Origin: Mobula birostris
Lineage: Eukaryota
NCBI RefSeq assembly: GCF_030028105.1
Contig: NC_092394.1
Span: 45,548,477-45,612,476, forward strand
Direction of reading: 5' to 3'
DNA: 64,000 bases
The translations under genes were made by a program, and so were the position numbers. Below the pieces are notes generated by a model that made no database searches, was not told the DNA's origin, and saw nothing but the letters and a program-made list of their open reading frames with translations. Of this stretch, positions 3,206-46,587 are shown in pieces. Every line of letters begins with the position of its first letter. Position 1 is the stretch's first letter.

Positions 3206-4929
3206 CTAGCTCATTGTCTGAAATTGTTGATCTTTTGTGTTGAGTCTAGAAGACAATAATATGCCTAGATAGAAAATAGCAGTGCTATTCCTTAATATTA
3301 CATTGACCTTTACAACAACAGTACAAGCAGCCAAAAAAAGATGACCAAAAAGGAAATGGAAGGGGAAAGTGCAGCTCAGAGCCTTGCCTACAGATGGAAC
3401 AGACATTCAGAATGTCTCTGCAGTTCAATCACCCAGTCTGCCTTTGTTCTGCTCAATGCAAACTCAGCAACTTGAACAGTATACTATAGACAGCAAATCA
3501 CATTAAGTACTTAGAGTAGTCAATTTGGTACCTCAAGCCTGATCCTTCATTCAATAAAATGCTCACTGATGTGAATTTTTATCTCAACTTTCCATTCTTG
3601 CTTACACATAGTCATTTCTTTACCCTATGGCCATCAAGTATCTGCCCATCTCTACTGTAAGATCAAAGACTGCCTTCACTGTTTGAGGAAGACTATTCCA
3701 AGGGCTCCAAGAGAAAATATTGAACCTTCTTGGTTGGGAGATTCTTTTTTTGAACAGTGATTCCTGTTTCCAGATTCTCCAAAAAGACAAAGTCTGCTCT
3801 CAACATTGACTTTTAGACTCTCTAGGATCCTGTACATTTCATTCACCCCTTCGCACTCCAAATTCCTGAGGAATTCTATCACAACTGCCTGCCCATTCCA
3901 GTTATCAGTCTAAAGAACCTCTAAATTTCATTGGATTAGGGTCCAAATTATGTTTTTTTTATTGTGTTTTTCCATGTAGTTTTTAAGCTTTCTTTATGCT
4001 GTCTTACATGTTACAATTTAGCTAGAAAGATCTTGGCTTTGGTTTTTATTTCCCCATAAGGTTAGAATTAGTGTAGAGGAGATAATCAGCAGCGGGAGCA
4101 AAACACATTGGTGGGAGCTGATTATAGGTCTTTAAATAGCAGTGGTGATGCAAGGTGCAGAATAAATAAGGAAATTAGATGCACATGCGACAATAATAAT
4201 ATAGTAATCATAGGGGACTTTAATTAGTACTTGCAATGTCTGGAATCTACACAAGATTCCTTCCTTGGTACACTGAGGAGAATCGACCATTTTAGATTTA
4301 CCACTGAATAAATTGTTCATTTGTAATTATTGGAAAGGGGCCCACAGAAAGAATGACCATAAAATAACAGGAAGTTCAAAATTGGGGTACCTCAGTCTGA
4401 AACATAGACTTTCAATGTAAATACCCTTGAAACTATTTGCACTGGTAAATTTATATCAAACAAAATTAAAATTGTCTTGGGATATTAATAGGAATACATT
4501 CAAAAATCTAGAAAATAAGTCAATTGCCAAGGATGCCAGGTTGGAGTTTTATGATGCTTTAAAAAGGGTTCATGAAATAGTACTGCACAAGAACAGGCCC
4601 TTCAGCTTATGATGTTATGGCAAATTAATTAAGGTAATGACATCTCACACATTCTGCCTGTTCATAGTCCATATCCCTTTATACTCACCTAGGTATACAA
4701 GAGCTTTTTAAATGCTTCTATCACACCTGCCTCCACCACCAAGTTCAACCCTTGAACTTTCTCCATACCATGTTAAATGCATGCCTCCTAGTATTAGACA
4801 CTGAGCCTGAGGGGATATTGGCTGTCAATTTAATGATCTTCTGTCAGGAAGATCATTAAATGGTTAAAAAATGGTTTTTTAATAGTTTTTTAAATTTATT
4901 AATGGTTAAAAAAAATATTGACCAGAACA

Positions 4930-5540
4930 AAGGGATTTGCAGGTACATATATATCAAGTCACTGAAAGATAGCATGCAGGTGCAGCAGTCAGGAAAGCAA
5001 ATGCTATAATGGTCTTTACTGCAAAAGGGTTTGAGTTCAGGAGTAAAGACGTCTTGGGATATAGGGCATTAGGTAGGTTACACAGCTGAGTTCCAATTTT
5101 GGTTTTCTTATCAGAAAAAGAATGTACTTGCTGTGGAAGGAATATGGAAATGACTTAATCAGATTGATTCTTGCAATGGTAAATTTATTTATTATTCAAG
5201 AAGAGTTGGGAAAACAAGGCCTTTATCATTAGAGTTTATAAAATTGAGAGTTGTCCCAGCTGAAAAATTCAGATTTTTTTAAGGTTTGACAGAATAAGAG
5301 GAAGGATATTTCCCTTAGCTGAGACATCTAGGTGCGACCAGGGCAATTTAAGATGGAATCTAGGGCAAATTTCTTTACTTTGGTATTCTCTAGCCCAGAA
5401 GTCAGCGGAGTCAAGTCATTTCTTTTATTCATAATTCATGATTGATAGATCTTTGCATTTTAGAATAATCAAGGGACATGGGCAAGAAAGTGCTTTTGAA
5501 GAATGGAAAAGTACGCTAGAATTGAATGGCCTACTTCAGT
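4930..5540 (+). mobile_element. Old CR1 LINE 3' remnant
   Basis: Degenerate counterpart of the CR1 C-terminal region seen at 31300-32100. Confidence 0.55.
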
Positions 5541-5765
5541 ATATTATCATCTTCAGTAGATTTGGCCCCAGAATAGACATTTCCTGCCAACAGTAGTGAC
5601 CTCATTCAGCATATCCTTCAGTTGGCCAATTCTCAGTTCTGATCCCTTAACTATACCATCGGCCGTTAGTAGTTCAGAGCCTTTCCCCAAAACACATCAG
5701 CATTTCTGCTGGCCTCCCCCTCACCTACCCTGAAACATCACTTTGAATTGAATATGACCTCTAAA

Positions 5766-5841
5766 GATTAAAAGGTTAAAGTCTGTCCCGAGCCTTGTGG
5801 CCCATCAGGCCGGAGCTTATGCCGGTTTCTGTGGTGTGAAG
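5766..5841 (-). mobile_element. 76-bp 5'-truncated SINE/LINE 3' end with 8-bp TSD
   Basis: CCTCTAAA at 5758-5765 and 5842-5849; short AAAGGTT-type tail repeat at the left end. Confidence 0.55.
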
Positions 5842-6119
5842 CCTCTAAACTCCAAAGATAATTCAGGTCTTGCTCATTCGCCACTGTCACCGGAGTAACT
5901 GAAAACATTTTTATTTTGTTAAATGGTTCTTAAAAGAATGTGTTGTTTTGTTACAGGATGTGATGAACAGTGAAAGCAATTCTGTGATTCACTTGGCTTT
6001 CTATAATCTCTCTTCCTCCCATAAATTTAGAACTAAAAGGGCAAGATAACAGCTCAGCGTTGTAAACTCTCAGTCCAAGAACAGTGCAGAGCTAGCAGAA
6101 TTTTATATTGGTAGGAAAA

Positions 6120-6500
6120 CAGAAATCAGGACAGAAGAGAAACAATGCCAGACAATGCAGCCTGGAAATTTTGGTGGTAGTTGAGGGTGAGGATAAGGGC
6201 ATTTTGATTGAAGGAGGTAATGGGCAGGTGAAGAAAAGGGAAGCTGTAAGAGGGGAGTCATAATGGAGAATGGAAAGGGGGGGGAAATGACCAGAATTTA
6301 CAGGATCAATGTCATGCTACCCAGACGGATTACGCGGCGCCGGTCTTCCAATTTGAGAGTAGCCTCATTGTGGCAGTGTTGGTGGCCGTGGAGCAACATG
6401 TCAAAATGGGAATGGAAAGTAGAATTAAAATGGGTCGCCAGCAGGAAATCCCGCCTGTTGTAGCAGACACAGCAAAGGTGCTCGATGATGCTCAATCTAA
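6120..6500 (-). mobile_element. Penelope-like GIY-YIG C-terminal remnant
   Basis: ORF 6298-6495: EHL...ATHFNSTFHSHFDMLLHG...KLEDRRRVIRLGS. Confidence 0.7.
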
Positions 6501-6658
6501 GTCAGGTGATGTTAAAAGCCGGCCACTGAGTAAATACAAAAAGCACCAAATTACACTAAAACCACAAATATTATACAAAAGCTGCTACATCCACATTCAT
6601 TTTACTGTCTGTTCTTACCACAGACAAGAACCTTCAACTGAATCATTTGATTTGATTA

Positions 6659-8159
6659 CCATAAATTCTGGTGTATAAGCCAATCCCCATTTTCAAGGTT
6701 AAAAAAGTGACTTTTTCATCTTACCTTTGTATAAGCCGACCCCTTTTGTAAAGGTTTTTGATTAACCAGAAAAGATCACAAGATCTCACATGCTGGTTCT
6801 CAACTTTGCCGGATCCGGAACCTGGAAATTTTGTGAACCAGTACCTGCTAAGAAAACAGGCCTACACATTGTACAGCGAATTTTTAATAAATAAATCAGA
6901 GAGGGAGGTTTTGGATTAGGTTCCCAATAGTAAAGAATCCGCTGAAATGTAACCCCCGTGAAACCATTTAGCACCCATCGTAATCTCATTAAAACATAAG
7001 ATGGGGTGGCGGGATCAGTATGTGTACTCAATACTGAGTTTGCGACCACCATGTACAAAAGATTAAAACGAATGCGATATGATGCTGGCTTCAAGCTGAA
7101 GGTTGTTGATTTTGCTAAAGGAACGAATAAACCTGTGGCTGCTAAGAAGTTTAGTGTAAACGAGAAACAAGTGAGAGAGTGGAGAAAGGCAGAGGACATG
7201 CTGAGGGAAATGCCAGAGACGAAATGTGCAAACCACAGGAAAACGTGCCAGTGGCCAGAACTGAAAGAAAAGGTTTCAGAGTGGGTGAATCACCAGCGAT
7301 CGTCTGGATACATTGTTACCAGAGAAATGATTCGAGTTCAAGCGTTGAAATGGGCCGAAAAACAGAGTAAGGTCAGCAAAAATTTCAAAGCTATGTGAAG
7401 TTGGTGCACCTGATTTATGAATAGACATGATCTTGTGCTGAGACAAAAAAACAAAGATTGCTCAGAAGTTGCCAAGTGACCTTGAGAATAAGATTACGGC
7501 CTTCCAGTCGTTTGTAATCAAGCATCGAAAGGCATATTCCTACCCGCTCTCACTGATTTGGTTACATGGACGAGACACCTATGTTCTTTGATTTTGCTGG
7601 CAACCGCACTGTCAATCAGAAGGGGGAGGAAACAGTCCTTGCCAAAACAACTGGACACGAGAAGCAACATTTTACTGTCGTGTTAACATGTATGGCTGAT
7701 GGGACCAAACTACTAGCCATAGTGATTTTTAAGAGGAAAACATTCCCAAAGAAAGAAACTCCTGCAGGGTGTTGTTGTTTACGTTCAAGAACAAAGCTGA
7801 ATGGACGAAGTAGGTTGCTTGAAGTGGGTTAAAGAGGTGTGGCGTCCACATCCCGAAGGTTTTAGGAAGGAAAAGTCGCTACTTGTCTGGGACATGCTCA
7901 AAGCGCACGTCATGTGAGACAAAAGCAGCATTGAAAGCTGAAAATACAGACATTGCAGTCATTCCCGGTGGTTTGACATCTGTGTGTAAATTTCATAAGC
8001 CCACTTTCTTTTGTATTTGACTCAAAAACAGCTAATAAATACGACCTGTCTTCCGTGTATTCATTTTTCCAAAGTTGGCACCCTCTCATAAGCTGACCCC
8101 CTAACTTTTAGGACCAAGCTTTAGGGCCAAAATCTCGGCTTATACACTGGAATTTACGG
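6659..8159 (+). mobile_element. pogo-superfamily (POGK/Passer-like) DNA transposon, internally deleted, 1501 bp
   Basis: TA TSDs at 6657-58 and 8160-61; TIRs CCATAAATTCTGGTGTATAAGCC / GGCTTATACACTGGAATTTACGG. Transposase remnant about 7051-7985 has a Brinker-type DBD (YDAGFKLKVV...QVREWRK), a CENP-B HTH and DDE_1 (MDETPMFFD), with stops and frameshifts. Confidence 0.9.
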
Positions 8160-10868
8160 TAATTCCAAAACTTCTCCAGGCAGTTGCTAGCACACTGTAG
8201 TCTCTTGCCAAATTCACTGATTCTAAAAATTGGCTGATAAAATAATGCTTTTTCCTCACTCAGTCAAGAATCTTCACATGGGAATATCCAGCTTACAGCT
8301 GCAACACTACTGAGCAACACGGGCAAAGAAATAACTGATAGCAGGACAGGTCTGAAAGCACCTTCTTACCTATTGTGCAGGTAACCAACAAGATCTCATG
8401 TGTGAATGACCAGGTGATGAGGCAAGATGAAGATGTGATTGAAACAAATCTGAAGGCCGATACACCGACCAGGAGAGAATGAGCACAGAAATATATGAAG
8501 AGGTCAGTTTCACCATTCAGTGTGATTAATGTGGAATGAAATGTTTAATGTATTAAAAGCACAAAGTCTCAGCAAGAATGAGCCTAACCTAGCAAGGGAT
8601 AACAATCCACATGTCAGTGCTCACCTCTCACCCTCGTTCTGTGCTAAGACATTCTAAAGAGATTATCTGCAAGCACCCACAGTGGATTGAACGCAGGCTG
8701 ACAGCTCTTCCCTTCCACCCACACCTTTCCTTCTTCCAGCAGTTTGACTCATGTATTCCAGAAATCTAGTCATGAATGAACCCACGCCTGAGAGCAAGTC
8801 AAAAATCTCTTCAATGCCTGCCTCAGTCAAACTTCAGCTGCAACTCTCATTTACTTGCCAAATTCCAATAATCCTCAAAAGTGTATCAGAAACTTGAATC
8901 CACACCTCTCCTGAATAAATTACAATGATTCATACATTCTTGTTCAGCTCAAAGCGGTTAAAACTCTTACTGAGACACTGAGACTATGCCTCCTAGTTCT
9001 AAACTCACAGTAAAAGAAAAACCTTCACTTTTCCTAGCTAATCAAACCCACTCATTCTTAAATTTTAGAGAGATATTCTAGGCTTCAGAGTATGTAGTAG
9101 GCTAATCAATCTTGCTGTAAAAGATAAGAGTATCTCAGGAATTAATTGAGTATAAAAACTGAAAACACCCAGCAAGTCTGACAGCATTTGTAAAGAAAGA
9201 AATTGACTCTATTTTAAGCCAATAGCCTTTCCTCAGAACTGATGAAAGCTTTAACGCTGATGAAAGGTCACGAGCAAAATTTTACTTGTTTTTCCTCTTG
9301 ACAAATGCTGTCAAGAGTTTTATTTCTGATTTCCAGCACATGCAGTTCTTTTGTGTTAATCTAGTAAATTCTGAAACACTTCAAGATAAGTATACCTTAC
9401 CTCGAATACAGACCACATGCTGCTTTGGCAATAGTTTGCTCAATGGCATCCTAAAACATAGGGGTCTCAAGGACAGACAAACAAGTCAGTAAATCACCAT
9501 TTATGGCCTATTAATGCACTGAAGTTTTAGAACAGAATCATCAGCTAATTATTCCCCAAATAGCTAATGAAATGATTTTGATTGCATTTGATTAAATTAA
9601 TCCAAAACCCCCTGTATACAGTACCATGCAATAGTCTTAGGCACGTTAAAAATCTGTAAAGTGAAGATGTTTTCAAAAATAATGAAATGAAGCATTTCTA
9701 AATATCAAAAAATTAATACATAGACCAGTTAAAAAAGCCGAATCAATATTTGGTATGACCATCCTTTGCCTTTAAAACTGCATCAATTCTGTTAGGTACA
9801 CTGTATTATAGGAAACCTAGCTGGAGCATCTTGGAGAACTTGCCAAAGTACTTCCGAAGACTTTGACTGTCTCACTTCTCTCTTTCCAGGTAATCCCAGA
9901 CAGCCTCCATGTTGATATGAGGGTTCTGTGGAGGCAATACCATCTGTTGTTGAAATCCTTGTTCTTCAAATCCTTGTTCTTCTTTTCACTGACGGTAGTT
10001 ATTTATGACCTTGGCTGTGTGTTTGGGGTCATTGCCCTGCTGCAGAATGAAGCTAGGACCAATCCCTGCTCGTGTTCTGTGATGGATAAGAATCTGCTTG
10101 TACTTCTCAGCACTGAGGATTCCGTTACTTCTGAACAGATCACCAACTCCATTTGCAGAAATGCAGCTCCCAAACCTGCAGGGAACTACCACCATGCCTC
10201 ATGGTTGGCCATAGCACTCTCCAGTTCTTCTATGGACAAACTTCCTGTTTGAGCCAAAATTTCATATTTTGATTCATCAGTCCAGAGGGGAGTCTCTTGG
10301 CTTTGTTTCCACTTCAGAGGTATGGCTTTTTGGCTGCCACTTCTGACAAGATTTCACTGGAATGCACAGGGGGTGTATTTGTGCTGCAGTGGTTTCTGTG
10401 CAAGTTCAGAGCTGACAGGAGTGCTGGAAGGGACATCAGTCTGCTACATTCAGTCTCCTTGGCCAACGACTGCATTCTTCTTGCACATTTCATTGTGCTT
10501 CTTCAGAAGAGCTTGGACAGCACATCTTGAAACTCCTGTCTGCCACAAAATTATTGCTTGGGAGAGATCTTGCTGATGCAGAATGATCACCTTGTGTCTT
10601 GTTGCTATGCTCATTTTTGGCGTGGTGTAAGAATTGATGATTTGAAGGATAAACTGTCACATCTGCCACACCCTCACCTTTTAGACTGAATGTCCTTTGC
10701 CCAACTTGATTCCTTCCACACCCATTTCTGTTTCAGTTAATCAGTTTATCATTCAACTCATGTCATTGATCATTAGCACCTGCTTGTTATTTGTTTAATC
10801 ATACACTGGGCTATATCTCTACAAAGTAATCAGGTTTTTATTTTGAAAAGTGGTCTATTATTTAATGT

Positions 10869-11145
10869 CCCATGATCCTCTCATATCTCCTTTGCCAATC
10901 ACCTGTCCAGCTCTTGGTTCTATCCCTCCCCCTCCTGTCTTCTCCTATCATTTTGGATCTCCCCCTCCCCCTTTCAAATCTCTTACTAACTCTTCCTTCA
11001 GTTAGTCCTGACGAAGGGTCTCGGCCTGAAATGTCGACTGTACCTCTTCCTAGAGATGCTGCCTGGCCTGCTGCGTTCACCAGCAACTTTGATGTGTGTT
11101 GCTTGAATTTCCAGCATCTGCAGAATTCCTGTTGTTGTTTGTTGT
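10869..11145 (+). mobile_element. 277-bp PLE 3'-end insert (hammerhead-bearing) inside the Tc1
   Basis: 13-bp TSD TATTATTTAATGT at 10856-10868 and 11146-11158; (TTG)n-like end; homologous to the PLE 3' regions at 38160-38480 and 44300-44637. Confidence 0.85.
11004..11039 (+). ncRNA. Minimal type I hammerhead ribozyme motif in a PLE-derived insert
   Basis: AGTC / CTGACGA / AGGGTCTCGGCCT / GAAA / TG / TC / GACT. Stem I is AGUC:GACU, the core CUGANGA and GAAA are intact, stem II is AGG:CCU, and the GUC cleavage triplet is at 11033-11035. Confidence 0.75.
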
Positions 11146-11429
11146 TATTATTTAATGTTTCTTTCTTTGACAAAACAATCCCTAACATTTAAGATATTGA
11201 AAAATGAATGTTTGGAAATCTAAAATTTCTTTTCTACTGACACACTAATGCAAAAGATTAAAAAGAATGAACATTTTAAACAAACTGTATATACAAAAAT
11301 CCAGGGTGTCCAATACTTTTGCACAGTACTGTATAACAATGAGGAACATGTTGATTTATCAAATGTACAAGTTTTTCTAATCTCTTCAATAGTGACACTC
11401 CAGGCGTAATTATTGCTAAGAGCCTAAAC

Positions 11430-12809: not shown

Positions 12810-12981
12810 TAGTTTTCACTGATCTACTATTGGCAACTAGACTTCTTTTTAGCTGCCAGAGCCTTAGCTCTAAACTTCCAATTTTTTTTTAATATATACA
12901 TATTAAAAATTAGGGAAGTTTAGAGCCAAGGCTCTGGCAGCTAAAAAGACCTAGTTACCAATAGTGAATCAGTGAAAACTA
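12810..12981. repeat. Long palindrome (arms about 82-86 bp, about 4-nt centre)
   Basis: The left arm tagttttcactgatctactattggcaactag...taaacttcc...ttaatat is the near reverse complement of atattaaaaattagggaagtttagag...atcagtgaaaacta. Confidence 0.92.
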
Positions 12982-13397
12982 TATACGAGATACACACATA
13001 TAATAACTTCCCTTGAGATACTCCATAAAATCTTCCTCTTTGACCAATATCTGATATAGCTACTCTGAACTTTTGAAAGGCATTACAAGAATGCAAGATG
13101 TTGCAAGCACATTTAAGGCAGATGTGTCACAAAGATGGAGCATTTTAGTTTGAACACACTACATATCCATAGCAAAAATCAGGCTGCTATAGAACACAAC
13201 CATATAGTTTGCTACCAAACTGAGCAGACACAAGATGTGTTAAAACATTGATTTGTATCCCCTGAACCCAGAGTGCATCACCAACTTATTCTCAATATTT
13301 CCACATGAAGCTTAAAGTAAGGTTCATGCCAACTATGTTCTGCTATATCATGTGGAACTGCAAATTAATATAGTGCATTCAAGCTTTAATACGATAC

Positions 13398-13962
13398 CTT
13401 GAACCATTAGTGACATGTGAAATGGACGCTGTAGGTAACCCTGTTGTAGCTATTGCTGAGCAAGGCCCATGTAGATTTCCCGTGGGAACTGGACCCACAG
13501 ATACTGTTCTCTTACTGTAAGGAAAGTATCCGTGGTTAGGAGACATGATCTGAGAGGACCTGCTGGAAGTCTGTTGAGAAGGTCCTGCCAAGTTGTAGGG
13601 AGTATGTCGACTACGATTTAAAATAGGTCCTGAGGCTACATAAGGTAGGCACTGATGACAAGAACAGTTTTGACCTCTGTGCAGTGGTGGATATGGTGCA
13701 TCAGAACATCTTTGAATTCGTCTCCGGAATCCAGTACTTCTATTTATCTGACATAGACTGGCCAAATCCACCATATAGTTGTATCCGAAGTTCCCTAAAT
13801 CAGCTACTTGTTGTCTTCCAGTGAAGCAATCCTCTAAGAAAATAGAAATGGCTGTTTCATAGGCTGTCCATCCACCTTCATCGTTTTCCCATTGCCATAC
13901 CAATCCTTGTCCTGGTGCAGTTGACTGAGCATATAGTTGCCTCCTGACTCTTCGCATTCTTC
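13398..13962 (-). CDS. DTX2: Deltex-2 second coding exon (WWE domain 2 + Pro/Ser-rich linker)
   Basis: Acceptor ttttacag|GA joins in phase to give [39 protein letters not shown]...GYNYMVDL. Probable donor AG|GTATCG at 13397. RING and C-terminal exons were not found in the window. Confidence 0.88.
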
Positions 13963-14095
13963 CTGTAAAAATTAAAATAAATTTAAATTCAGAGAGAACA
14001 CGGAAGGAATAGAGAAGATTAAATAATCAATATTTTTCTTTGGGATATGCCGCTTGGTAGCCAAATGATATCACATTTATTTTTCCTCAACTGTA

Positions 14096-14579
14096 CAGGT
14101 GTGCACCGCTTCACATCCATTCAGACAACGCCCGATCGTATATATATCCATAGTCCCAATCAGAGAACATGACGTAGCGGACGTAACCAATCTTGTGGAT
14201 CGCGCGTCTTTCGAAAATATTACCGTAAAGTACATCATGGCTTCCAAATGCAGCAAAACCACTCCTAGTGATAGCAGCAGCAAGAGGCAAAGGACAAGTA
14301 TTGATTTGGAGGTGAAACAAAAGGTTGTTAAACAATATGAAGGTGGAAAACCAGTGAATGTTATTGCTTGGGATCTAGGCATGTCACACTCGACAAACAC
14401 AACGATCCTGAAAAACAAAGAAAAAATTCTCGAAGCTGTTAAAGGATCGGCTTCACTGAATTTAGTCAATACAGGTACGTTAGCTAAGTATATAATATGG
14501 TGTTTGCACAACGTCCAAATCACATAACGTCCGATTTCACAGAACGTATCGTGGATGTTAGTTAAGCAACGCATGCCTG
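14096..14579 (+). mobile_element. Tigger-like non-autonomous DNA transposon, 484 bp
   Basis: TA TSDs; TIRs CAGGTGTGCACCGCTTCAC / GTTAAGCAACGCATGCCTG; retains the N-terminal HTH KRQRTSIDLEVKQKVVKQYEGG...STNTTILKNKEKI. Confidence 0.85.
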
Positions 14580-23460: not shown

Positions 23461-24019
23461 TTTTTTTCCTTACATAAAATCCAAAAACATCAACTGCAAT
23501 TATCAAGTCTGAACCTCCTAAGGAGATATGCATTTGTTAATTTCTTTACTTATGTAATTCCTAACTTTAAGACTGTAAAAATTACATTTATTTTGGAAAC
23601 AAGTATAAGTACTTCCAATGAAAAGATTCTCTACCTCAAAAACTAGACGTCATAAATATACTAAGAAATATGTAGTCCGCTGGAAACAATTAAAAACAGA
23701 AACAACGAAGTAACTGGAACACATCTGTTTAGCGATGTCGTTAATCTCTTACAAACCTTCTAAATATCAAGGTTAAAAAAAATAGTGGATTACCGCAAAG
23801 GAGATATGAGAAAATATCTACAGATACGTGATTTATAAAGTTGAAGACAAGACTCAAGTGCAGTTACCTCAGGTACACTAAAAACAGCACATTGTAACTA
23901 AATACTATATTTTAAGTAAACAAAAGGCCATTCTGACGTGAAGTTATGAATATTGAGCAATAACTAGACAACAGCAATAGAGAGCCGGACATGCAGAACA
24001 GCATTAAATGCTAATACGA

Positions 24020-24650
24020 ATCGACGTTAGCAGTAGGTGGCTGAGTGGCCGTACCGGTGTCCTGGCGGAACTGGTGGAGTGTAGGGATATCGATTATGTA
24101 GGGGGCTAGCCAGGGGTCGGCCTGACCCAGCGCGATGCTCTGGGTTCCTTTGCCGGTGGCCGCCGCCGCCGCCGCTCCGTGTAGCTGCTGCAGGCTGCGC
24201 TCGACGTGCTCGCTCACTCGGCTGCTGTAGGGCCTCCAGTGGCCCGCCTCGTCCTCCCACTCCCATACCACTACCTGCGGCCCCTGGGCCACCGCCACCG
24301 CCACCGCCCCCACCCCGGCTGCAGGGAAGCTTGAGGCGCCACCGCCTCCCGCAGCCGCCCCTCCGCTTCCGTACGCCGAGGCCGCCATGTCGTGCTCCCT
24401 TCCCGGAGTAAACCGCGAGCGACAACCACGGACAACTTTCGGATCTAAGCTCCTCCCTCTGCTGTCTCCAGGAAAAAGGGGGAAGGCGTCACCGCGCTGC
24501 ACCTTGGGCAATGTAGTTTATTGTGTCAGGATTCCGAGGATCTCACATCCAGTTTGCCCACTGACGGACTACAACTCCCATGAGCACAGTGACTCGCAGT
24601 CAGCTGACGGTTATGGGCAGGTGCGAGTGTAACAGCGGAGCTGCGAAACT
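24020..24650. promoter_or_regulatory. DTX2 CpG island and promoter with two ZNF143/THAP11-type ACTACAnnTCCCA motifs
   Basis: CpG-dense. ACTACAACTCCCATGAGCAC at 24568-24587 (+) and the variant ACTACATTGCCCAAGGTGCA at 24498-24517 (-). Confidence 0.72.
24055..24388 (-). CDS. DTX2: Deltex-2 E3 ligase, first coding exon (WWE domain 1)
   Basis: ATG at 24388 gives MAASAYGSGG...VVVWEWEDEAGHWRPYSSRVSEHVE...IALGQADPWLAPYIIDIPTLHQFRQDTG, the Deltex WWE1 signature. Donor G|GTACGG at 24054; 334 nt, phase 1; lies in a CpG island. Confidence 0.9.
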
Positions 24651-29845: not shown

Positions 29846-32105
29846 TTTGAGAGGGAGAAGCTAAAGTCAGATGTATCAGTATTACAGCAGAGTAAAGGGA
29901 ATTCCAGAGGCATGAGAGAGGAGCTGGCCAAAGTTGATTGGAAGGGGACACTTGCAGGGATAATGGCAGAGCAGCAATGGCCAGAATTTTTGGATCAATT
30001 CAGAAGGTGCAGGATAGATACATCCCAAAGAAGAAGTAATATTCTAAAGGCAGGATGACTCAACCATTGCTGACAAAGGAAGTCCAACCCAACATAAAAC
30101 CCAAAGGGAGGAAAAATTAGTAGGAAGTTAAGGATTGGGAAGCTTTTAAAAACTATCAGAAGGCAACTAAAAAAGTCATAAAGAGGAAAAAGATGGAATA
30201 CAAAGGTAAGCTAGCCAATAATATTGAGGAGGACACTAAAAGTTTCTTCAGATATATAAAGAATAAAAGAGAGGTAGGAGTAGATAACGGACCACTGAAG
30301 AATGATGCTGGAGGGGCAGTAATAGGGGAAATGGTAGATGAACTAAATAAGTATTTTGCCTCCATCTGTACTGTGGAAGACACTAGCAATATGCTGGAAT
30401 TTCGTGTGTTGGGGGCAGAAGTGAGTTAAATTGCTATACTAGAGTAAGGGTGCTTGGGAAGCCAGAAGGTCTGAAAGTAGGTAAGTCAGCTGGACTAAAC
30501 TGTTTACACCCTGGGGTTCTGAAAGAGGTGGCTGAAGAGACTGTGGAGGCATTAGTAACGATCTTTCAAGGATTAGTAGATTCTGGCATGGTTCCTGGAA
30601 AATTGCAATGCCAATCCACTCTTCAAGGGAGAGACAGAAAAAATGAAATTACAGACCATTTAGTCTGACCTCAGTGGTTGGGAAGATGTTGGAGTCAATT
30701 GCTAAGGATGTGGTTTCAGGATACTTGGAAATTCGATAAAATCAGCCGAAGACAGCATAGTTTCCTTGAGTTTCCTGACAAATCCATTGGAACTCTTTGA
30801 AGAAATAACAAGCAGGATAGACATAGGGGAAATCTGTTGTTTTTATATACTTGGAGTTTCAGAAGGCCTTTGACAAAGTGCAATACATGAAGCTGCTTAA
30901 TAGTTTAAGAACACATGGTATTATGGGAAGGGTACCAGCATGGACAGAGCATTGGCTGATTCGCAAGAGGCAATGAGTGGGCATAAAGGGGGCCTTTTCT
31001 GGTTGGCTGCTGGTAACTAATGGTGTTCCACAGGGGTCAATATTGGGGCTGCTTCTTTTCATGTTATATGGCAATGATTGGGATGATAGAATTGATGGCT
31101 AGCAAAGTTTGTGAATGATACAAAGATAGGTGGAGGAGTGGGTAGTATTGAGGAAGCAGAGAGACTGCTGAAGGATTTAGGTTAGGAGAATGGGCAAAAA
31201 AAAATTGGCAGATGGAATATAGTGTTCAGAAGTGTATGGTCATGCACTTTGGTAGAAGAAACAAAAGCATGGACTATTTTCTCAATAGAGAGAAAATTCA
31301 AAAATCTGTCAAGCAAAGGGAGTCCTCGTGCTTAAAGGTTAATTTGCAGGTTGAGTCGGTGGTGTGGAAAGTAAATGTAATCTTTCCATTCATATTGAGA
31401 GGACTAGAATACAAAAGTAAGATTATCATGTTGATGTGCTAAAAAGGCACTGGTGAGGTCACACGGAGCATTGTGAGCAGTTTTGGGCCCCTTATCTAAG
31501 AAAGGATGTGCTGACATTGAGTCCTGCCGAAGGGTTTTGGCCCAAAACATCAACTGTACTCTTTTTCATAGATGCTGCTTGGCCTGCTGTGTTCCTCTAA
31601 CATTTTATGTGAGTTGCTCAGATTTCCAGCATCTGAAGATTTTCTCTTGTATGTGCTGACATTGGAGAGGCTTCAAAGGAGGAAATGATTTCAGGATTGA
31701 AAGGCTTATCATATGAGGAGCCTTATGTTCTTATTAAAAGCTATCATATGTTGAAAGGCCTCAAAAGAGTGAATGTGGAGAGGATGTTTCCAATGATGGG
31801 AGATTCTAGGATGAGCAGTCACAGCCTCAGAAACAAGGGACATCCGTTTCAGAGACAAGGAGGAATTTATTTAGCCAGACTGGTGAATCTGTGGAATTCA
31901 TTGCCACAGGCAGCTGTGGAGGCCAAGTCATTTGGTATATTAAAGGCTGAGGTTGATAGATTCTTGATTAGTCAGGGCATAAAGGATTATGGGGAGAAGG
32001 CAGGAGATTGACACCCAAGAGGGAAATGGATTAGCCAGGATGTAATTGTTGAGCTGACTCAATGGGCCAAATAGCCTAATTCTGCTCCTATATCTTATGG
32101 TCTAA
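29846..32105 (+). mobile_element. CR1 LINE (ORF2 remnant with 3' tail)
   Basis: KLANNIEEDTKSFFRYIK..., FQKAFDKV and GVPQGSILG regions, NLWNSLPQ; tail tcttatggtct. Confidence 0.9.
31520..31650 (+). mobile_element. 131-bp PLE-tail insert inside the CR1
   Basis: 14-bp TSD ATGTGCTGACATTG at 31506-31519 and 31651-31664; begins AGTC-CTGCCGA-AGGG (decayed hammerhead). Confidence 0.88.
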
Positions 32106-34714: not shown

Positions 34715-35353
34715 TTATCCGGGAACACCCTTAAAGCTGAATGCAATATCCAAGAGCACCTTCCCAAGTGCCTCTTGTTTCCCTCCCTTGACAAATTCTT
34801 CTGATAGCTCCCTAAAAGTACTGCAAATTCGCCTTGACTTGATGTCTTGTCTGTAAATTCCATGTTTCCATTTATATCGTGCATTTCCATACAAAACAAT
34901 TAAAGATCTCCTTGGTAAATGAATTGCCACCTCTACATCATTGGAAGGTACAGATCTTCGATTTTTGCAGGGACCTGGAATATCAACATTGAAATCAAAA
35001 ATGCTTTCTGAATTACCATTTATGGGATCATATTGCTGTGTGTTTTGTCCCATTTCAGTCAAGTGTAGCTGGAGGAAATCATCTGAATCACAGGTCATTG
35101 ATAACGCAGTTTCAGACAACAAATTAATGCTGACCAAACGTCTGCCCCACAGCCACCAGTCATCGAAGTGTGGATCAATGCCAGAGCCTTGCTCTGGTCT
35201 GTAATCTAGGTTACACTGTTCCACAGGAAGGAAGTTTTCCAGGACACTGTACTGCGCCATTCGGTTCACAAGCAAGAGGCTGAAGCATGGTAGACCACTG
35301 AAACATCCCACCTTCAACTTGTGCTTTTTAAAGTTCACCTTTGGGCCATAGTC
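34715..35353 (-). CDS. ALKBH4: ALKBH4 exon 3 (2OG-Fe(II) dioxygenase core, stop codon)
   Basis: Acceptor ctttcag|GAC; DYGPKVNFKK...IDPHFDDWWLWG (HxD)...WKHGI (distal His)...RRICSTFR; TAA at 34715. Total protein 37+66+212 = 315 aa. Confidence 0.95.
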   Translation of the reverse strand, partial: DYGPKVNFKKHKLKVGCFSGLPCFSLLLVNRMAQYSVLENFLPVEQCNLDYRPEQGSGIDPHFDDWWLWGRRLVSINLLSETALSMTCDSDDFLQLHLTEMGQNTQQYDPINGNSESIFDFNVDIPGPCKNRRSVPSNDVEVAIHLPRRSLIVLYGNARYKWKHGIYRQDIKSRRICSTFRELSEEFVKGGKQEALGKVLLDIAFSFKGVPG

Positions 35354-35994
35354 CTGAAAGTTGACAAGGAAACAAATGAGTAACAATGGATTGAAACAAG
35401 AATTCTAATTTATTTCTTCACTTGTAATCACTGGCAAGCCCTGCAATTATTGTCCATTAATATTTGCTCTTGGAAAGATAACGATGATAGCTTATTGGCT
35501 AGGTAAACCACTTCAGAGGGCAGATAAGGTTAATAATATTTCTACTGGCCTGAGCCACTTAGGGAAGACAAGACACACATTTCCTAAAAGCAAATAGAAA
35601 ACCAAACTGATATCTGTAACTACTTTTTAAAGGTTTATGTTAATTGTTACTGATAGCACAATACTTTTTTCCTCCCAAATTCTAGATTTACTGAATTCAA
35701 ATTCCCAAACTGTTGGGTTGGGGAGAAAGAACAGATTTCCAGATATGTTCTTGGAGCACAAACCCAGCACACATTTATTCTCCCGTTGGACTTTTTCTCC
35801 AGTATTTTTCTTACTATTTAAGTGTTGGGAATTGAGTTGGCTGAAGTCAAGTCTAAGTGAGTATGGGGCCCTCAAGAAGAAGCTGGGATTAATCATCTAC
35901 TCAGCACAATTGGCTAAAGTTGTTTGCTTCAGCCTTCAATTTGGCACTCAGATGTTGGTCTTTTTTATGTTCTTGGGAGTTGTTGCTCCAGCCC

Positions 35995-36350: not shown

Positions 36351-36939
36351 TGCTCGACTCACAGCAACGGTTTAATTATTCTGAACTATTCATGAACAAA
36401 TAGGGTGGGTCGACCAAGCTTTGACTTGATCCATCGGTTTAACTCTATCCAAGTTTAACCATACTGAATTGGCCTATGGATCGAAGGTATTGTGTAAATA
36501 CAGTACAGATGTATGAAACCGGAGGAAATTAGGTATAAATGCCTGCTTTCTCTTTCAGAATATGGCAAGCATCACAATATAACAGATTCTTCAATTTGGC
36601 ATCAATCACCACAAATCTCCTCACTTCTTTCACATTCCAGTTAGTTTTATTCATATGTTTTTAAACAATATGGTTCATAAATTTCCTGTTAAATATTCAA
36701 TTTCCCACAAAAGTTTATATTAAATTATTCTCTTCTAAAAATCTGACCCAAGAATGAAAATGTACTGATACCCAAGTAATTTCAGTCAACAGATGAAAAG
36801 AATTTAAAACAGCATTCAAAATAAATGGAGTGTTCAAACTCATCTGGTGAATGCAAATGGAAAAAAATACAGAACTAAAAGCAGAAAATGTTGAAAATAC
36901 TCAATCAGGTCCAGCAACAACTATTGAAAAGAGAAGCAG

Positions 36940-36976
36940 AAATAACGTTTCAGATCAGTGATCATTCATCAGAATT
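36940..36976 (-). ncRNA. Hammerhead motif of a second, older PLE-tail subfamily
   Basis: Minus strand AATT-CTGATGA-ATGATCACTGATCT-GAAA-CG-TT-ATTT: different stem sequences around the same core. Confidence 0.55.
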
Positions 36977-37644
36977 AGGAAATGATTTTTCCTTGCTCTG
37001 ATAACTGTTTCTCTCTGTACAGATACTGTTGGGCCTGTTGATTAATTTCAGCAATTTCTGCTTGGTTAATAATTTGCATCACTCTAATCTCTGCTTGTAG
37101 ATAGAACCTCAATATTATATAACAATGTTACGAATGTTTTTAATAGCAAAAGAAACAATTCAATTATGTACTTCCAGATCCTTGGAATGTCAAGGGACAC
37201 AGTGTACATCCAAAACAGGAAACTTGAAATGACTGATTTTAATAAGAGTGGACTTTAATTAAAATTGTACTTAAAAGAAAAAAATCTGTTGAGTTACTTT
37301 AAAATCTATTGCATCGACATTTTAAAAAAGCTCAGCACATAGCTTTGCATGCATTTTGAAAAACTATTTACAAATGCCTTAAGATATTTGGGAAGTGTGA
37401 TATATTTGCACCAGAATGATTAATGTCTATAATGGGAAGTTGTCTTCTATAATCCAATCAAAACAAACTGTTAAACACAAAAAGAAGAATGGAATTAAAT
37501 AATAATTGGCTATCACATCTGATCACTTGAAACAGAAATTTCTCATTCTATCACTTTATGGAGGTATACTGCAAAACTGTATTGTATCGGTGTCCCAGCA
37601 AGTGATCCATAAATAATATGTTCATCATGACAGGGAAACCTAAC

Positions 37645-38157: not shown

Positions 38158-39700
38158 TAAACATGAGGAAATCTGCAGATGCTGGAAATCCTAAGCAACA
38201 CACACTAAATGCTGGAGGAACCCAGCAGGTCAGGCAGCATCTATGGAAAAGAGTAACCAGTCATCATTTCAGACCGAGACCCTTCTCAAGGACTGAGAGT
38301 AAAGGAGGAAGGTGCCAGAATAAAAAAGGTGGGGGGGGGGGGGAGGTGGGAAGGAGGCTAGCTGGAAGGTGATAGGGAATGCCAAGTAGGTGGGAAAGGT
38401 CAAGGGCTGGAGAACGAATCTGGTAGGAGAAGAGTGGACCATTGGAGAAAGGGAAGGAGGAGGGGACCCAGGAAGGAGTGATAGGCAGGAGAGAAGAAAA
38501 TTGTTTTATCAGAAGGAGAAGTTGATATTCATGCCATCAGGCCAGAAGCTACCCAAACAGAATATAAAGTGTTGCTCCTCCACCCTGAGGGTGGCCCCAT
38601 ATTGGCACAAGAGGCAGCCACGGACTGAAATGTCAGAACGGGATTGAGAACCGGAATTAAATTGTTTGGCCACCAGGAAGTCCCGCTTGTGGCAGATGGT
38701 GCAGAGGTGCTCAACAAAGCAGTCCCCCAATTTACAATGGGGCTCACCTTTGTCACATCGGGAGGACTGGACACAATAGACAACCCCAACAGATTCACAG
38801 TTGAAGTGTTGCCTCACCTAGGTGGACTGTTTGGGGCCCTGAATGGAGGGGACAGAGGAGCTAAATGGGCAGGTGTAGCATGTTGGCCACTTTCAGGGAT
38901 ATATGCCAGGAGGGAGATTAGTGGAGAGGGACAAATACACAAGGGAATCATGAAGGGAGTGATTCCTGCAAAAAGCTGGAGGAGGGGGAGGCAGGTAAAG
39001 ATTTGTTTAGTGCATCCCTTTGGAGACGACATAAGTTGCAGAGGGTGATGTACTGGATGCGGAGGCTGATGGGGTGGGAGGTTAGGACAAGAGGAAGTCA
39101 ATCACTGTTAAGGCGGAGGGAAGGTGGGGTGAATGCAGATGTTTGGGAAATGGAGGTGCGGGTGAGGGCAGCATCAATAGTGGAGGGAGGGAAACCCCGT
39201 TCTTTGAGGAGGGCATCATGGAATGAAAAGTTGCCTCCTGGGAACAGATGCAGTGGAGGCAAAGGAATCGAAAAAAGGAATAGCATTTTTACAGGAGGTA
39301 GGATGGGAAGTGGTATAGTCAATCAAGATACCCATTGGAATCGTAAGATTTCTATAAGATGTCAGCTGGCTGTGTCTCCAGAGATGGAGTCAGAGATTGA
39401 GAAAGGGGAGGGATGCGCCTAAAATAGACTGAGTGAATTTATGGACAGGATGGAAGTCAGAGGCGTAGTTAATTAAAGTGATGAGCTCATGGGTGCATGA
39501 AGCAGTTAGCAGAGGAAGAGTTGGGGAACATTACCAGGGAAGGCTTTGACCATGGACTGTTCTAAACAGCCAATGAAGAGGCAAGTATAGCTGGGGCCCA
39601 TGGCTACCCCTTGAGTTTGGAGAAAGTAGGAGGAGCAAAAGGAAAATTTGTTGAGGGCGAGGACCAGTTCTGCCAGACAGAGAAGTAAGTGTGTGGTGTA
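38158..39700 (-). mobile_element. Penelope-like retroelement, 5'-truncated (RT C-terminus, GIY-YIG, 3' tail)
   Basis: FLQTQGVAMGPSYTCLF (RT); GVVYCVQSSRC...GE...LGDCFVEHL...EEQHFIFCLGSFWPDGMNINF (GIY-YIG); decayed hammerhead at 38258-38295. Confidence 0.88.
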
Positions 39701-40224
39701 GGGGACTGGTGGTGAATGGCAGAACATGCTTGTTGGGTCAAATGGTCAAACTCTACTTTGAGATCTTATGGTCTTATGATATCATTCATCTCACAATCAA
39801 AGACAGTCAGGTTGCAGGTGTTATGAAAAATCAAAAATAATGGAGATACTGAAAATCTGAACTAAAAACAGAAAATGCTGGAAATATCCTGCAGGTTAGG
39901 TACAAGCAGTGGAAAAGGAAACCAGAAAAATATTTCTGGTGGAAAATTTATTATCAAATAATCCATAGATCTTTCATCTGAATCATTAGCTGCTTCCAGT
40001 TCCACAGAGGTTGCCTGATCTGTTGAGCTTTTCCAGCACTTTCTGTAGTCATTATGAATGCTGGTTGATGAAGTAACCACTGCAAGTTGAACTCGCTGTT
40101 GCTGTCAAACTGAGAATCTTCCCTCCTTCACCTAAACTGAAAATAAATGCCCTTGAAATTCACTAACTTCCAATGACCTGATGTCTTTCTAGTTATCTAT
40201 TGGTCAGCACCTTTTGCATCACAG

Positions 40225-42607: not shown

Positions 42608-42619
42608 ATTTAAATATTT

Positions 42620-43185
42620 AAACAATACACACAAAATGTTAGAGCAACTCAGCAGGCCAGGCAACATCTATGGAAAAAAGCACAGTCAATGTTTCAGGCC
42701 ATAACCCCTCGAAAGGACTGGAGAAAAAACACTGAGGAATAGATTTGGAAGAGAGAAACACCACGTGATAGGTGAAACTTGCAGGTGGAGAGATGAAACA
42801 GAGTTAGGAAGTTGATTGGTGAAAGAGACAGAAGGCCATGGAAAAAAGAAGAAAGAGGGGAGAAATGCACCAGAGGGAGCCCATGGGCTGGCAAGGAGAT
42901 AACATGAGAAAGGGACCAGGGGATGGGAAATGGTGAAGGGGGCAGTGGAGGCATTACTGGAATCAATGTTCATACCATCTGGTTGGAGGCTACCCAAACA
43001 GAATACAAGGTGTTCCTCCGGCCTAAGCGTGGCTTTATCCCGACAGTAGAGGAGGACGTGGATGAACATATCAGAATGGGAAGTGGAATTAAAATGGGTG
43101 GCCACTGGGGAATCCTGTTTGTTCTGGCAGATGGAGCATAGCTGCTTGGTGAAGCAGTCTCCCAATCTATGTCGGGTCTCACTTC
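42620..43185 (-). mobile_element. Penelope-like 3' fragment (inverted partner of 43186-44637)
   Basis: ETRHRLGDCF...PVATHFNSTSHSDM...LGSLQPDGMNID plus tail with a decayed hammerhead at 42683-42720. Confidence 0.85.
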
Positions 43186-44637
43186 CTTCAAACAAAAGTG
43201 GTAACCATGGGCACTCGCATGGGTCCCAGCTATGCCTGCCTGTTTTTCGGCTACGTGGAACAGCAAGCCTTCACTGGTGACCGTCCCGCACTTTTCCTAT
43301 GCTACATCGACAACTGCATTGGTGCTGCTTCCATGCTGAACTCGTCAATTTCATCCACTCTGCCTGCAACTTCCACCCAGTCCTCAAATTTGCCCGGTCC
43401 ATTTCCAACACTTCCCTTCCCTTTCTCACTCTCACTGTCTCTATCTCCAGAGACAGCTTATCCACTGATGTCTATTATAAACCAACGGACTCTCACAGCT
43501 ACCTGAACTATACCTTGTTCCACACTGCTACTTGTAAAAATGCCATCCCCTTCTCTCAATTCTTCCACCTCTGCTGCCTCTGCTCTCAGGATGAGGCTTT
43601 TCATTCTAGAACAAAGGGGGCATCCTCCTTTTTCAAAGAAAGGGGCTTCCCTTCCTCCACCATCAACACTGCCCTCACCCGCATCTCTTCCATTTCACGC
43701 ACATCTGCTCTTACCCAATCTTCTGCAACGCTACCAGGGCTAGGGTTCCTCTTGTTCTCACCTACCACCCCACCAGCCTCCCACTAAACACATCTTTCCC
43801 TCCCCCAACTTTCTGCAGGGATCGCTCCCTACACAACTCGCTCATTCATTCATTCATCCCTTCCCACTGATCTCCCTCCTGGCACTTATCCTTGCAAGCA
43901 GAACAAGTGCTACACCTACCCCTACACTTCCTCCCTCACTACCATCCAGGGCCCTAACCAGTCCTTCCAGGTGAGGCGACACTTTACCTGTGGGTCTTTT
44001 GGAGTCATTTACTGCGGTCTGTGCTCCTGGTGTGACCTCCTGTATATCAGTGAGACCCGACGTTGACTGGGAAACCGCCTCGCTGAGTATCTACGCTCCT
44101 TCCACCAGAACAAGTGGGATCTCCCTGTGGCCACCCATTTTAATTCCATTTCCCATTCTGATATGTCCATCCATGGAGTCCTCCACTGTTGTGATGAGAC
44201 CACACTTAGGACAGAGGAACAACACCTTATATTCCATTTGGGTACCCACCAACCTGATAGCATGAATATCAATTTCTCAAACTTCTGGTAATGCCCCCCC
44301 TTTTCCCTCTCACCTCATCACCTTGCCTGCCCATCGCCTCCCTCTGGTGCTCCTTCCCCCCTTTTTCTTTCTTCCACAGCCTTCTGTCTCTTTCACCAAT
44401 CAATCCCAGCTCTTTACTTCATCCCTCCCCTCCAAGTTTCACCCATCACCAGCTGGTTCTCTCTCCCCTCCATAAATCTGCTCCGCAGCTTTGTTTGTTC
44501 AGTCCTGCCGAAGGGTTTCAGCCCAAAACATCAACTGTCCTTTTTTTTACTCCATAGACGTGCCTGGCCTGCTGAGTTCCTCCAGCATCTTGCACATGTT
44601 GCTCAGATTTCCAACATCTGCAGATTTTCTTGTTTCT
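43186..44637 (+). mobile_element. Penelope-like retroelement, 5'-truncated
   Basis: MGTRMGPSYACLF...CYIDNCIG (YIDD site), TDVYYKPTDSHSYL, a GIY-YIG region, and a tail with a decayed hammerhead at 44501-44536. Confidence 0.9.
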
Positions 44638-44993: not shown

Positions 44994-45133
44994 AAACACC
45001 AGGAAATCTGCAAACGCTGGAATTTCAAGCAACACACATAAAAATTGCTGGTGAACGCAGCAGGCCAGGCAGCATCTATAGGAAGAGGTACAGTCGACGT
45101 TTCAGACCAAGACCCTTCGTCAGACCTAACTGA
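44994..45133 (-). mobile_element. Short PLE-tail insert (hammerhead-bearing)
   Basis: Near-identical to 10998-11135 in reverse orientation; interrupts a CR1 tail remnant. Confidence 0.82.
45092..45127 (-). ncRNA. Hammerhead motif, core intact, stem I altered
   Basis: Minus strand AGGT-CTGACGA-AGGGTCTTGGTCT-GAAA-CG-TC-GACT. Confidence 0.6.
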
Positions 45134-45562
45134 AAGCGATAGTACTAAATCTCTTCTGCCTATACATGAACCATTTATCTACACTTCCCGACTAGACTTT
45201 TCACTGCACCCTGGTACATGTGACAATAAACTAATACCAATATTCAAATACTCTTGAACACCACTGTAACATCGGTTTCCATCACAACTTCTTGCAGCCC
45301 TAGTCTTGGTGATCAGTGAGGCTTCTTTGAGAAGGGCCCCATTCATTCACGTGCAATCACCATTCTGGTAGAGGCAATTACACTAATTAGCTGGTCGAGC
45401 AGCATTTGTGGGGGCAAAGTAATTCCTCCTCTCACAGATGCTGCTCGACTCTCGAGCTCACTCAGCAGATTGCTTGTTGCTCCAGACTGAAGTATTGCAA
45501 TCTCCCGTGCCACCATAGATTATTTCCAATACAGAAGCCACATCTAACGGAGAGACACTAAC

Positions 45563-45673
45563 CCGCTGACACTTGGGCACCACAGCAACCGGGCCCTTGG
45601 CCTGCTCACAACTCAGACACGAACGGATCCCTCGGCAGCCGCAGCTTGTCTGCGCGGCGGCCTTGGTAGCCAT
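45563..45673 (-). CDS. ALKBH4: ALKBH4 exon 1
   Basis: MATKAAAQTSCGCRGIRSCLSCEQ... contains the ALKBH4 N-terminal CGCxGIRxCLxCE cluster. Donor CGG|GTTAGT; 111 nt, phase 0. Confidence 0.9.
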
Positions 45674-45929
45674 TGTCAGGACGTCCCCACCCCGCCCCCC
45701 TACTTGGGGGCCTCCGAGCGTCCGTCTCCAGCCGCCGCCAACACCGGCCAACCGCACAACTCCAGCCCGGTGCGGCCACCGCGGCGCGCGTGCGCACTGA
45801 AAGACTCGCGCGCGCCGGGTATGAACGCGGCCAAGCCCAGCGCGCATGCGCGCCAAAAGCTGCCGGCCGACCCCCGCGTCGCGCGCGCGCCGGCTGTGAA
45901 CGTTTCCGAGCGCGGCGGCGGCGCGCGGA

Positions 45930-45985
45930 CCCGCTGAAATTTGACGAGCTTCCGGGAACGAACCGGCGCAGCAGGGGTGCAGAAG
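45930..45985 (+). other. LRWD1: Probable non-coding 5'UTR exon of LRWD1 (start approximate)
   Basis: Strong donor AAG|GTGAGC at 45985/45986 on the right flank of the CpG island; the ATG-bearing exon at 54726 begins with a splice acceptor. Confidence 0.55.
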
Positions 45986-46587
45986 GTGAGCGGTGTCGGT
46001 GCTGGGAAAGTTAATGCAAATGTTTCCTGGTTTATTCGGTGTCATGGCAGCCCCCGCGGCGGTGTCCACGTGTGGCTCCTTGCACCCAGTGCTGAGGGTG
46101 ATTACAGAGGGACAGTGGCAAGTTACTACTGTTTCCAGGCTTTTCCCGTTAATAGACGGTAAAAGCAAACCGTTCACTTTTCATAGACGCTACAGGACCT
46201 GCAGAATGTGTGCAACTTTCTTCCTTTTAATTTAGATTTCGAGCTTAATGTCTACATACACTTCTTATCCTATTAATTTGTTCTGGATAAATAATTTGTT
46301 CTTTGAGTTCACAACTGTTTCAAAAACTGGATATTTTTAAAAGCTGTATATATGGCAAATAAAAGCGAGGAAAAATTGCTTCATTTGGCAGGTCAAGCAG
46401 CATCTGCGGAAAGGGATCAGACACTTATCTGAAATTGGGTAAGGAGAAAAAGATGCTTTGGCTAGAGCGCGAGAGGGATTAACATAACGGGAATATTGTT
46501 GACTAGCTGACTAGGGTTCCCATGAATGTAAATTGTTCATGACCTAATGTGGTTGATTAATGAGGACAATTGAGCGAGAAAATACAC

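Follow-up and report, generated by a model that had tools for sequence, protein, structure and literature searches.

Introduction

Minimal hammerhead ribozymes (min-HHRs) were described in 2014 in the pLTRs of metazoan Penelope-like elements (PLEs); they carry a bulge after A9 and a palindromic 15.2-16.2 stretch, have no loop III and show weak activity as dimers (PMC4209133). The available sections of that report name no cartilaginous fish among the hosts, and our literature search returned no description in cartilaginous fish of the family analysed here; Lunse et al. 2017 may already list such variants. For the Anolis Poseidon element PAc, two internal reverse transcription start sites and both-strand cleavage and extension have been reported (Frangieh et al. 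2024, PMC11167929), together with a hammerhead that needs protein and is dispensable for insertion. Neptune and Nematis elements among the endonuclease-bearing (EN+) PLEs form inverted copies and often keep the tail at one end only (Craig et al. 2021, PMC8557442). Non-LTR retrozymes, which a recent survey also records in a chondrichthyan, are tandem arrays with a hammerhead in each unit and a circular RNA (Li et al. 2026, bioRxiv 10.64898/2026.07.22.740005).

Here we analyse an insert at 10869-11145 of the window (the whole 64,000-nt stretch of Mobula birostris DNA that was studied), in which a first-pass annotation had recognised a minimal type I hammerhead, of a family with an ACGU palindrome, at an end derived from Penelope. 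That identification holds, and judged by its sequence the family belongs to the min-HHR class of PLE pLTRs on every structural feature examined. The loop-less, ACGU-type stem III has defined that class since 2014 and is not novel (PMC4209133). As in the published min-HHRs, the order is type I, helix I has 4-5 bp, an unpaired base stands between A9 and 10.1, loop III is absent, older subfamilies have G10.1-C11.1, and the motifs are mostly dispersed and single, from truncated PLEs, with some close opposite-strand pairs. Unlike in them, helix II has 4 bp (7-8 bp in Schistosoma), the youngest subfamily has G10.1-U11.1, and copies are one to two orders of magnitude above the 4,000-9,000 given for coelacanth and Xenopus (PMC4209133).

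Results

The focal insert and its hammerhead motif

The insert at 10869-11145 consists of the last 277 bp of a young Penelope-like element, with 94% identity to the young-family reference over 268 nt, and is flanked by 13-bp target-site duplications (TSDs) that read TATTATTTAATGT. Its parts are the following:

10856-10868 (+): left TSD, 13 bp, direct repeat
10869-11003 (+): distal 135 nt of the ~300-nt 3' UTR, with a pyrimidine tract at its end, by alignment to the young reference
11004-11040 (+): minimal type I hammerhead, with stems, core and bulge read from the sequence
11041-11136 (+): leader 3' of the hammerhead, holding the short 3' end site and the ~35-nt 'tail'
about 11098-11107 (+): short 3' end site within the leader, from end mapping of the family
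about 11135-11140 (+), in family coordinates: long 3' end site, the end of the ~35-nt 'tail'
11137-11145 (+): extra GTT-type repeat at the 3' junction, from the sequence
11146-11158 (+): right TSD, 13 bp, direct repeat

The GTT-type repeat at 11137-11145 likely arose by reiterative priming at the long start site.

Motif positions are counted from T11006 as position 0, and the hammerhead extends from -2 (A11004) to +34. Every segment of the type I order that the first-pass annotation had read at 11004-11039 was found in place. Stem I pairs AGTC (11004-11007) with GACT (11036-11039), the core is made of CTGACGA (11008-11014) and GAAA (11028-11031), and in TGTC (11032-11035) U16.1-C17 fall on 11034-11035, which puts the predicted cut at 11035|11036, 3' of C11035 as had been anticipated. 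Stem II had to be redrawn within this order: it is better read as a bulged A at 11015, directly after CTGACGA, plus 4 bp between GGGT (11016-11019) and GCCT (11024-11027) with a CTCG loop. The ACGU palindrome attributed to the family is present in five of six subfamily consensuses, but the focal copy reads GAAATGTC, where a CpG transition has changed ACGU to AUGU (the C of position 15.2 has decayed to T at 11032), and this copy is itself likely inert. A relaxed hammerhead descriptor matched the focal site, once in the window, and nothing in 100 Markov controls. A scan of the window against Rfam gave no hammerhead match at E<=10, as expected for a loop-less variant. A11004 may be the RNA 5' end of the element; its context is initiator-like (YYANWYY) and likewise acceptor-like (YAG). 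A coding role for the region was rejected, since the open frame across it ends upstream of the ORF and lies in a different reading frame.

The parent element and its abundance

Long copies run through a 300-nt 3' UTR into an ORF whose translation, read by eye, holds RT, a C-x4-C-x2-C linker and a GIY-YIG-like domain with CxxC. The element appears to be an endonuclease-bearing PLE of the Neptune type, a clade assignment that rests on the linker motif. It shares with the Neptune and Nematis EN+ PLEs the arrangement of RT, CX2-5CxxC linker and C-terminal GIY-YIG (PMC8557442; PMC3846280), and the layout features of EN+ PLEs, namely pLTRs, inverted copies, a 30-40-nt tail and a TSD, are all present. 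Partial tandems, inverted 5'-truncated copies and solo pLTRs are likewise common to both (PMC8557442; Arkhipova et al. 2013, PMC3846280). In contrast to those EN+ PLEs, TSDs here are about 13-14 bp and lie in mixed sequence, not in microsatellite targets, and 5' ends pile up very strongly at the hammerhead edge (PMC8557442; PMC3846280).

Within a unit the order is hammerhead (-2 to +34), leader, ORF (first ATG at about +165) with RT, zinc-finger linker and GIY-YIG, ~300-nt 3' UTR, and the next hammerhead. The same 135 nt precede the ORF in direct orientation at 5 of 30 loci picked with an N-terminal ORF probe. Because these 135 nt continue into the ORF in full-length copies, what looks like a 3' end is the 5' leader of the following tandem unit, an arrangement shared with PAc (PMC11167929); the first-pass annotation was right about the derivation from a PLE, but not in calling the piece a 3' end.

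Across the 4.0 Gb of genome searched, a 33-mer 3' of the hammerhead has 55,330 exact matches and the 34-mer of the intact hammerhead has 30,596. Unselected DNA (664 kb) contained 120 arms, which corresponds to roughly 7e5 genome-wide; 77 of the 120 span the whole motif, 31 have an intact core and 10 keep the core together with both stems and ACGU. By these counts the family ranks with the most frequent repeats in this genome; the first-pass annotation had called it one of the commonest in the stretch that it read.

Homologues within the window

All eight homologues listed by the first-pass annotation are present, although 36940(-) is old and weak (E 1e-4) and 58130(+) proved to be one arm of a head-to-head pair. 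A profile search revealed further homologues at 9.2, 39.9 and 47.9 kb. The features are:

31520-31650 (+): older-subfamily stub that starts exactly at stem I, core decayed, 14-bp TSD at 31506-31519 and 31651-31664
36882-37064 (no single strand): old head-to-head pair, with a divergent hammerhead at 36940-36976 on the minus arm
38160-39705 (-): 5'-truncated PLE with RT thumb, GIY-YIG, 3' UTR and a decayed hammerhead at 38258-38294
42616-44634 (no single strand): head-to-head PLE fragments with bodies; the minus arm has its short end at 42616, the plus arm its long end at 44634
42683-42719 (-) and 44501-44537 (+): decayed hammerheads of the 42616-44634 pair
44995-45135 (-): young stub from -9 to the long end, with intact core, mismatched stem I and no clear TSD
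47310-48034 (+): old PLE fragment with a GIY-YIG remnant and a divergent hammerhead at about 47917, absent from the first-pass list
48246-48888 (-): old PLE fragment with a decayed hammerhead at 48343-48379
58010-58214 (no single strand): young head-to-head pair joined inside the hammerhead, 14-bp TSD at 57996-58009 and 58213-58226; the minus arm runs from +12 to the long end, the plus arm from +4 to the short end

Most of these homologues have broken cores, and only 11004 and 45127 hold CUGANGA and GAAA in register. Some copies are indeed attached to PLE bodies, as had been noted, with protein remnants behind 38294(-), 42719(-), 44501(+), 47917(+) and 48379(-). The 13-14 bp TSDs ascribed to these inserts were recovered in part: the focal insert has 13 bp, and 31520 and the pair at 58.0-58.2 kb have 14 bp each, whereas no TSD of 12 bp or more was found for 45127(-), 36976(-), 47917(+) or the pair at 42.6-44.6 kb. 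The same PLE end also forms far older head-to-head pairs, at 9166-9350, 36882-37064 and 39841-40046, which shows that the mechanism behind such pairs is long-standing in the lineage.

Where copies begin and end

Ends were mapped in 134 arms anchored downstream of the motif, taken from the first 5.5 Mb of contig C1 and from the window. Their 5' ends fall in -4 to +4 in 35 cases (3.9 per nt), in +5 to +27 in 18, in +28 to +33 (the cut site) in 2, and in -46 to -5 in 7; an indel in the reference accounts for five apparent 5' ends at -47 and for some longer ones, and leaves the -4 to +4 count unaffected. Among 23 young arms in unselected DNA, 4 begin in -4 to +4 and 11 beyond -45. Stub 5' ends are spread from -4 to beyond -1600, co-linear with the autonomous element, and of the five copies in which the leader-ORF junction survives, one starts at -2. 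The 3' ends of the 134 arms are bimodal (about +92 to +101 and +129 to +134, about 35 nt apart), and the two sites, centred at about +97 and +133, are the tail signature of a PLE. Neighbouring head-to-head arms always combine a long with a short end (39/39 pairs, or 36 after removal of three chance neighbours), and 59 solo arms divide into 31 long and 28 short ends.

These patterns resemble what is known of PAc, where the hammerhead also lies at the pLTR-ORF junction and two internal start sites define a 30-40-nt tail; copy ends suggest that here too both target strands are cleaved and extended and that uncut RNA is the main template (PMC11167929). Differences from PAc are the Neptune type of the element, with its first ATG about 165 nt downstream and outside the pLTR, and the use of one site by each of the paired arms, whereas PAc had the same choice of start site on both strands in vitro (PMC11167929).

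In solo inserts the TSD adjoins the element at -2 to +1, often via 1-3 bases of microhomology, with no common upstream exon, and this favours an RNA start at -2 over a splice acceptor. All subfamilies have YYANWYY at -2; the boundary, with a branch-like motif, a pyrimidine tract and YAG, looks equally like a 3' splice site. A cap-derived G before -2, hinted at by 5 of 7 arms, is not supported by its frequency of 29/100, which is that of the background (the pattern left out joints with T at -4). Assembled contigs of related subfamilies match between -2 and +34, flanked by loose ends, and do not bear on starts, ends or strand.

Three head-to-head pairs at unrelated loci of contig C1 (3953980/3954753, 4344611/4345381 and 102108/102852) have a near-identical internal junction (-465/-203), which suggests that the inverted dimer itself was copied as a unit. 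In three seemingly solo short-end stubs (L251, L268 and L270), a few bases separate the element from its TSD and represent an opposite arm that was begun at the long start site and aborted. One copy (L094) starts at -2, extends ~1.5 kb into the ORF and is then joined to a second stub, from -2 to +97, within one TSD; it looks like a template jump from an RNA 5' end.

Conservation and covariation

For six subfamily consensuses, arms were grouped by their downstream sequence alone; 216 of 357 had full cover, and clusters of fewer than 5 members were excluded. Excess conservation of the core over its flanks, on which the first-pass annotation had staked its reading, is evident, with 2 of 11 core positions variable among the consensuses against 11 of 13 in the linker and 4 of 4 upstream. 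Both variable core positions sit in one 8-member cluster, and one of them is CpG decay; a small subfamily of 8 copies has U4 changed to A. The downstream block from +48 to +85 is conserved as well (17 of 38 positions vary), and protein binding or promoter function may account for some of the conservation.

The bulged A is found in 85 of 91 older arms, and the 10.1-11.1 pair is G-C in the older subfamilies and a G-U wobble in the youngest. An older subfamily has GUU as its cleavage triplet. Covariation of stems I and II across subfamilies, which had also been predicted, was seen in stem I, as one compensatory swap, but not in stem II, whose changes are one-sided (G-C to G-U, U-G to U-A). The swap replaces a C-G pair of stem I by U-A in an older subfamily with a 13-nt stem II. 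When both sites were left free, the hand tally for this pair among 100 listed of 394 matches was 61 T..A, 20 T..G, 12 C..G and 7 C..A, and linkage of the pair in 88 non-young arms was not significant (p 0.07). The support from covariation appears real but thin, since the stem I swap is a single evolutionary event.

Direct joints, tandem arrays and folding

Direct joints place a piece of the motif ahead of another copy. They gave 96 matches genome-wide, 82 of them distinct, and amount to less than 0.1% of young arms. By hand tally, the upstream piece ends at C17 in 25 of the 82, at +35/+36 in 19, at +32 in 8 and at +28 in 5. Six of the 25 C17 joints permit microhomology. The blunt C17|A(-2) joints carry no added base (10/10), and their upstream piece never reaches beyond -3, as one would expect of the 5' product when an RNA that starts at -2 is cut. 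A control range, +46 to +76, gave 157 matches; among the 100 listed (about 67 distinct, contigs C1-C20) the maximum was about 7 per position, against about 15 C17 joints on these contigs. Among single joint positions C17 ranks highest, about two-fold above the best controls, which is suggestive only. Control joints prefer ends after CTG/CTGC (+59, +64/+65), and this similar preference weakens dimer geometry as a source of the +35/+36 peak. Few head-to-head arms start at G30, and almost all of those that do show the AGTC microhomology of stem I (100 of 672 listed), so the 3' cleavage product would not be the usual template; as a common template it was rejected, there being no blunt peak at G30.

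Nearest-neighbour energies, which ignore tertiary contacts, are -11.0 kcal/mol for an inactive monomer hairpin, with the core paired to the CGUC segment, and -11.5 kcal/mol for the active dimer of two molecules (-7.2 for the focal copy). With the inactive monomer fold favoured and the active dimer weak, cleavage should be rare without help.

Short tandem arrays of about 59-78-bp units, each with a hammerhead, occur on contig C17 (745423, 804948, 19158312, 27357541), C4 (27795117) and C6 (200493999), and the unit of the contig C17 arrays recurs at four loci. These few short arrays would qualify as non-LTR retrozymes under the operational definition.

Discussion

We consider it probable that 10869-11145 is a 5'-truncated stub of an abundant PLE, with a decayed minimal hammerhead that likely stands at the RNA start and likely cuts rarely, as a protein-assisted dimer. 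What we observe are end patterns and joints in DNA, and from them we infer that the RNA starts at -2 and that a dimer forms and is cleaved. In the mechanism that we propose, the protein of the element, in a dimeric particle, would nick both target strands about 13-14 nt apart, and reverse transcription would be primed internally, at +97 on one strand and at +133 on the other. Copying of an RNA that begins at -2 would leave stubs of 100-135 nt, copying of a read-through RNA from a partial tandem would leave longer ones such as the focal insert, and the joining of two cDNAs would give head-to-head pairs. The templates would be mostly uncut RNA, because a cut at C17 would part the priming sites from the upstream ORF and strip the mRNA of its 5' end. 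The rare C17 joints may mark template jumps that landed on a cleavage product, at its free 3' end. A more specific version, which we put forward as speculation that we rather doubt, is that the hammerhead is the RNA-pairing module of a Penelope particle of two RNAs and two proteins, where each RNA primes one strand at a fixed site, which would give every pair its long and its short arm, and the dimer occasionally self-cleaves. If true, the C17 genomic joints would document for the first time that a minimal hammerhead of a metazoan PLE cuts in vivo, and the family would be a natural readout of the PLE reaction in a hundred thousand copies.

The first-pass annotation had favoured a retrozyme-like mobile family, and the corresponding explanation, that a separate non-autonomous family multiplies by cleavage of dimers, circularisation and reinsertion through the PLE enzyme, now seems to us very improbable. 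The huge number of 100-135-nt inserts with TSDs of their own and the few short tandem arrays with complete hammerheads are what it would lead one to expect, and animal retrozymes have been proposed to derive from pLTRs (bioRxiv 10.64898/2026.07.22.740005). The type I hammerhead, pLTR-derived or pLTR-related, is indeed shared with non-LTR retrozymes (bioRxiv 10.64898/2026.07.22.740005; Cervera 2020, PMC7229834). However, the inserts are stubs co-linear with the autonomous element, their lengths continue without a break into the ORF, and they do not start at the cut site: 2 of 134 arms begin in +28 to +33, and the head-to-head starts at G30 are nearly all explained by AGTC microhomology among those listed. 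Tandem units are rare, with 96 and 157 pattern matches for direct tandems against more than 55,000 arms, and no permuted, circle-derived monomers were seen among the copies. Unlike the arrays of the non-LTR retrozymes (bioRxiv 10.64898/2026.07.22.740005), the family here consists of dispersed stubs and inverted pairs, and the focal copy is single.

The front edge of the hammerhead might instead be a splice acceptor or a hard stop for RT, with stubs made from spliced or stalled templates. A pyrimidine tract and YAG precede the boundary in all subfamilies while the sequence upstream is unrelated, no cap-G signal was found, and the intron of the D. virilis Penelope is reported to end at helix I (PMC4209133; for the intron see PMC2377424). 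We nevertheless regard this as improbable, as the TSD abuts solo inserts at -2 to +1 with no common upstream exon, and an enzyme that travels 3' to 5' would reach the 3' side of stem I first and not the 5' side. Greater weight, though still well short of an even chance, goes to the possibility that the motif is no longer a ribozyme in this lineage, that it is kept as a promoter or a protein-binding sequence, and that the C17 joints reflect a sequence preference of template jumping. This would accord with the favoured inactive monomer fold, with the other jump hot spots after CTG/CTGC, where there is no ribozyme, with the conserved block at +48 to +85, and with PAc, whose hammerhead is dispensable for insertion in vitro and at whose cut site no reads end (PMC11167929). 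It is harder to reconcile with a core that is kept despite a pair swap in stem I and a variable loop, and with C17 as the highest single joint position, mostly blunt. The stub of a PLE with a rarely cutting, dimeric hammerhead at its RNA start is the reading that we prefer.

The tens of thousands of young, near-identical copies with countable ends provide material on in-vivo cutting by PLE minimal hammerheads and on their role, a subject of earlier work (PMC4209133, PMC11167929 and PMC8557442), and the strict long/short pairing and the C17 joints make sharp predictions for a reconstituted reaction. For annotation, the stubs belong under PLE ends, not under SINEs or retrozymes. The motif is of a known kind, and the mechanistic leads are modest.

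Neighbouring features

Two WWE-domain exons at 24011-24517(-) and 13379-14026(-) presumably belong to a Deltex-like gene. The focal insert lies past the second of these and has the opposite orientation, which means that the pre-mRNA would not contain its hammerhead in sense. Exons at 34715-35404(-) and 45458-46180(-), which have no Pfam match, resemble what we take to be ALKBH4, and the 45127(-) stub, with its intact core and mismatched stem I, would be sense within an intron of this ALKBH4-like gene. Remnants of Pogo/Tigger-like DNA transposons (BrkDBD, HTH_Tnp_Tc5, CENP-B_N) are found at 7000-7398(+) and 14069-14527(+). At 12814-12977 there is a long, near-perfect inverted repeat with arms of about 65 bp and an A/T-rich spacer, to which many miRNA models matched below threshold; it is more likely a MITE-like element than a miRNA.
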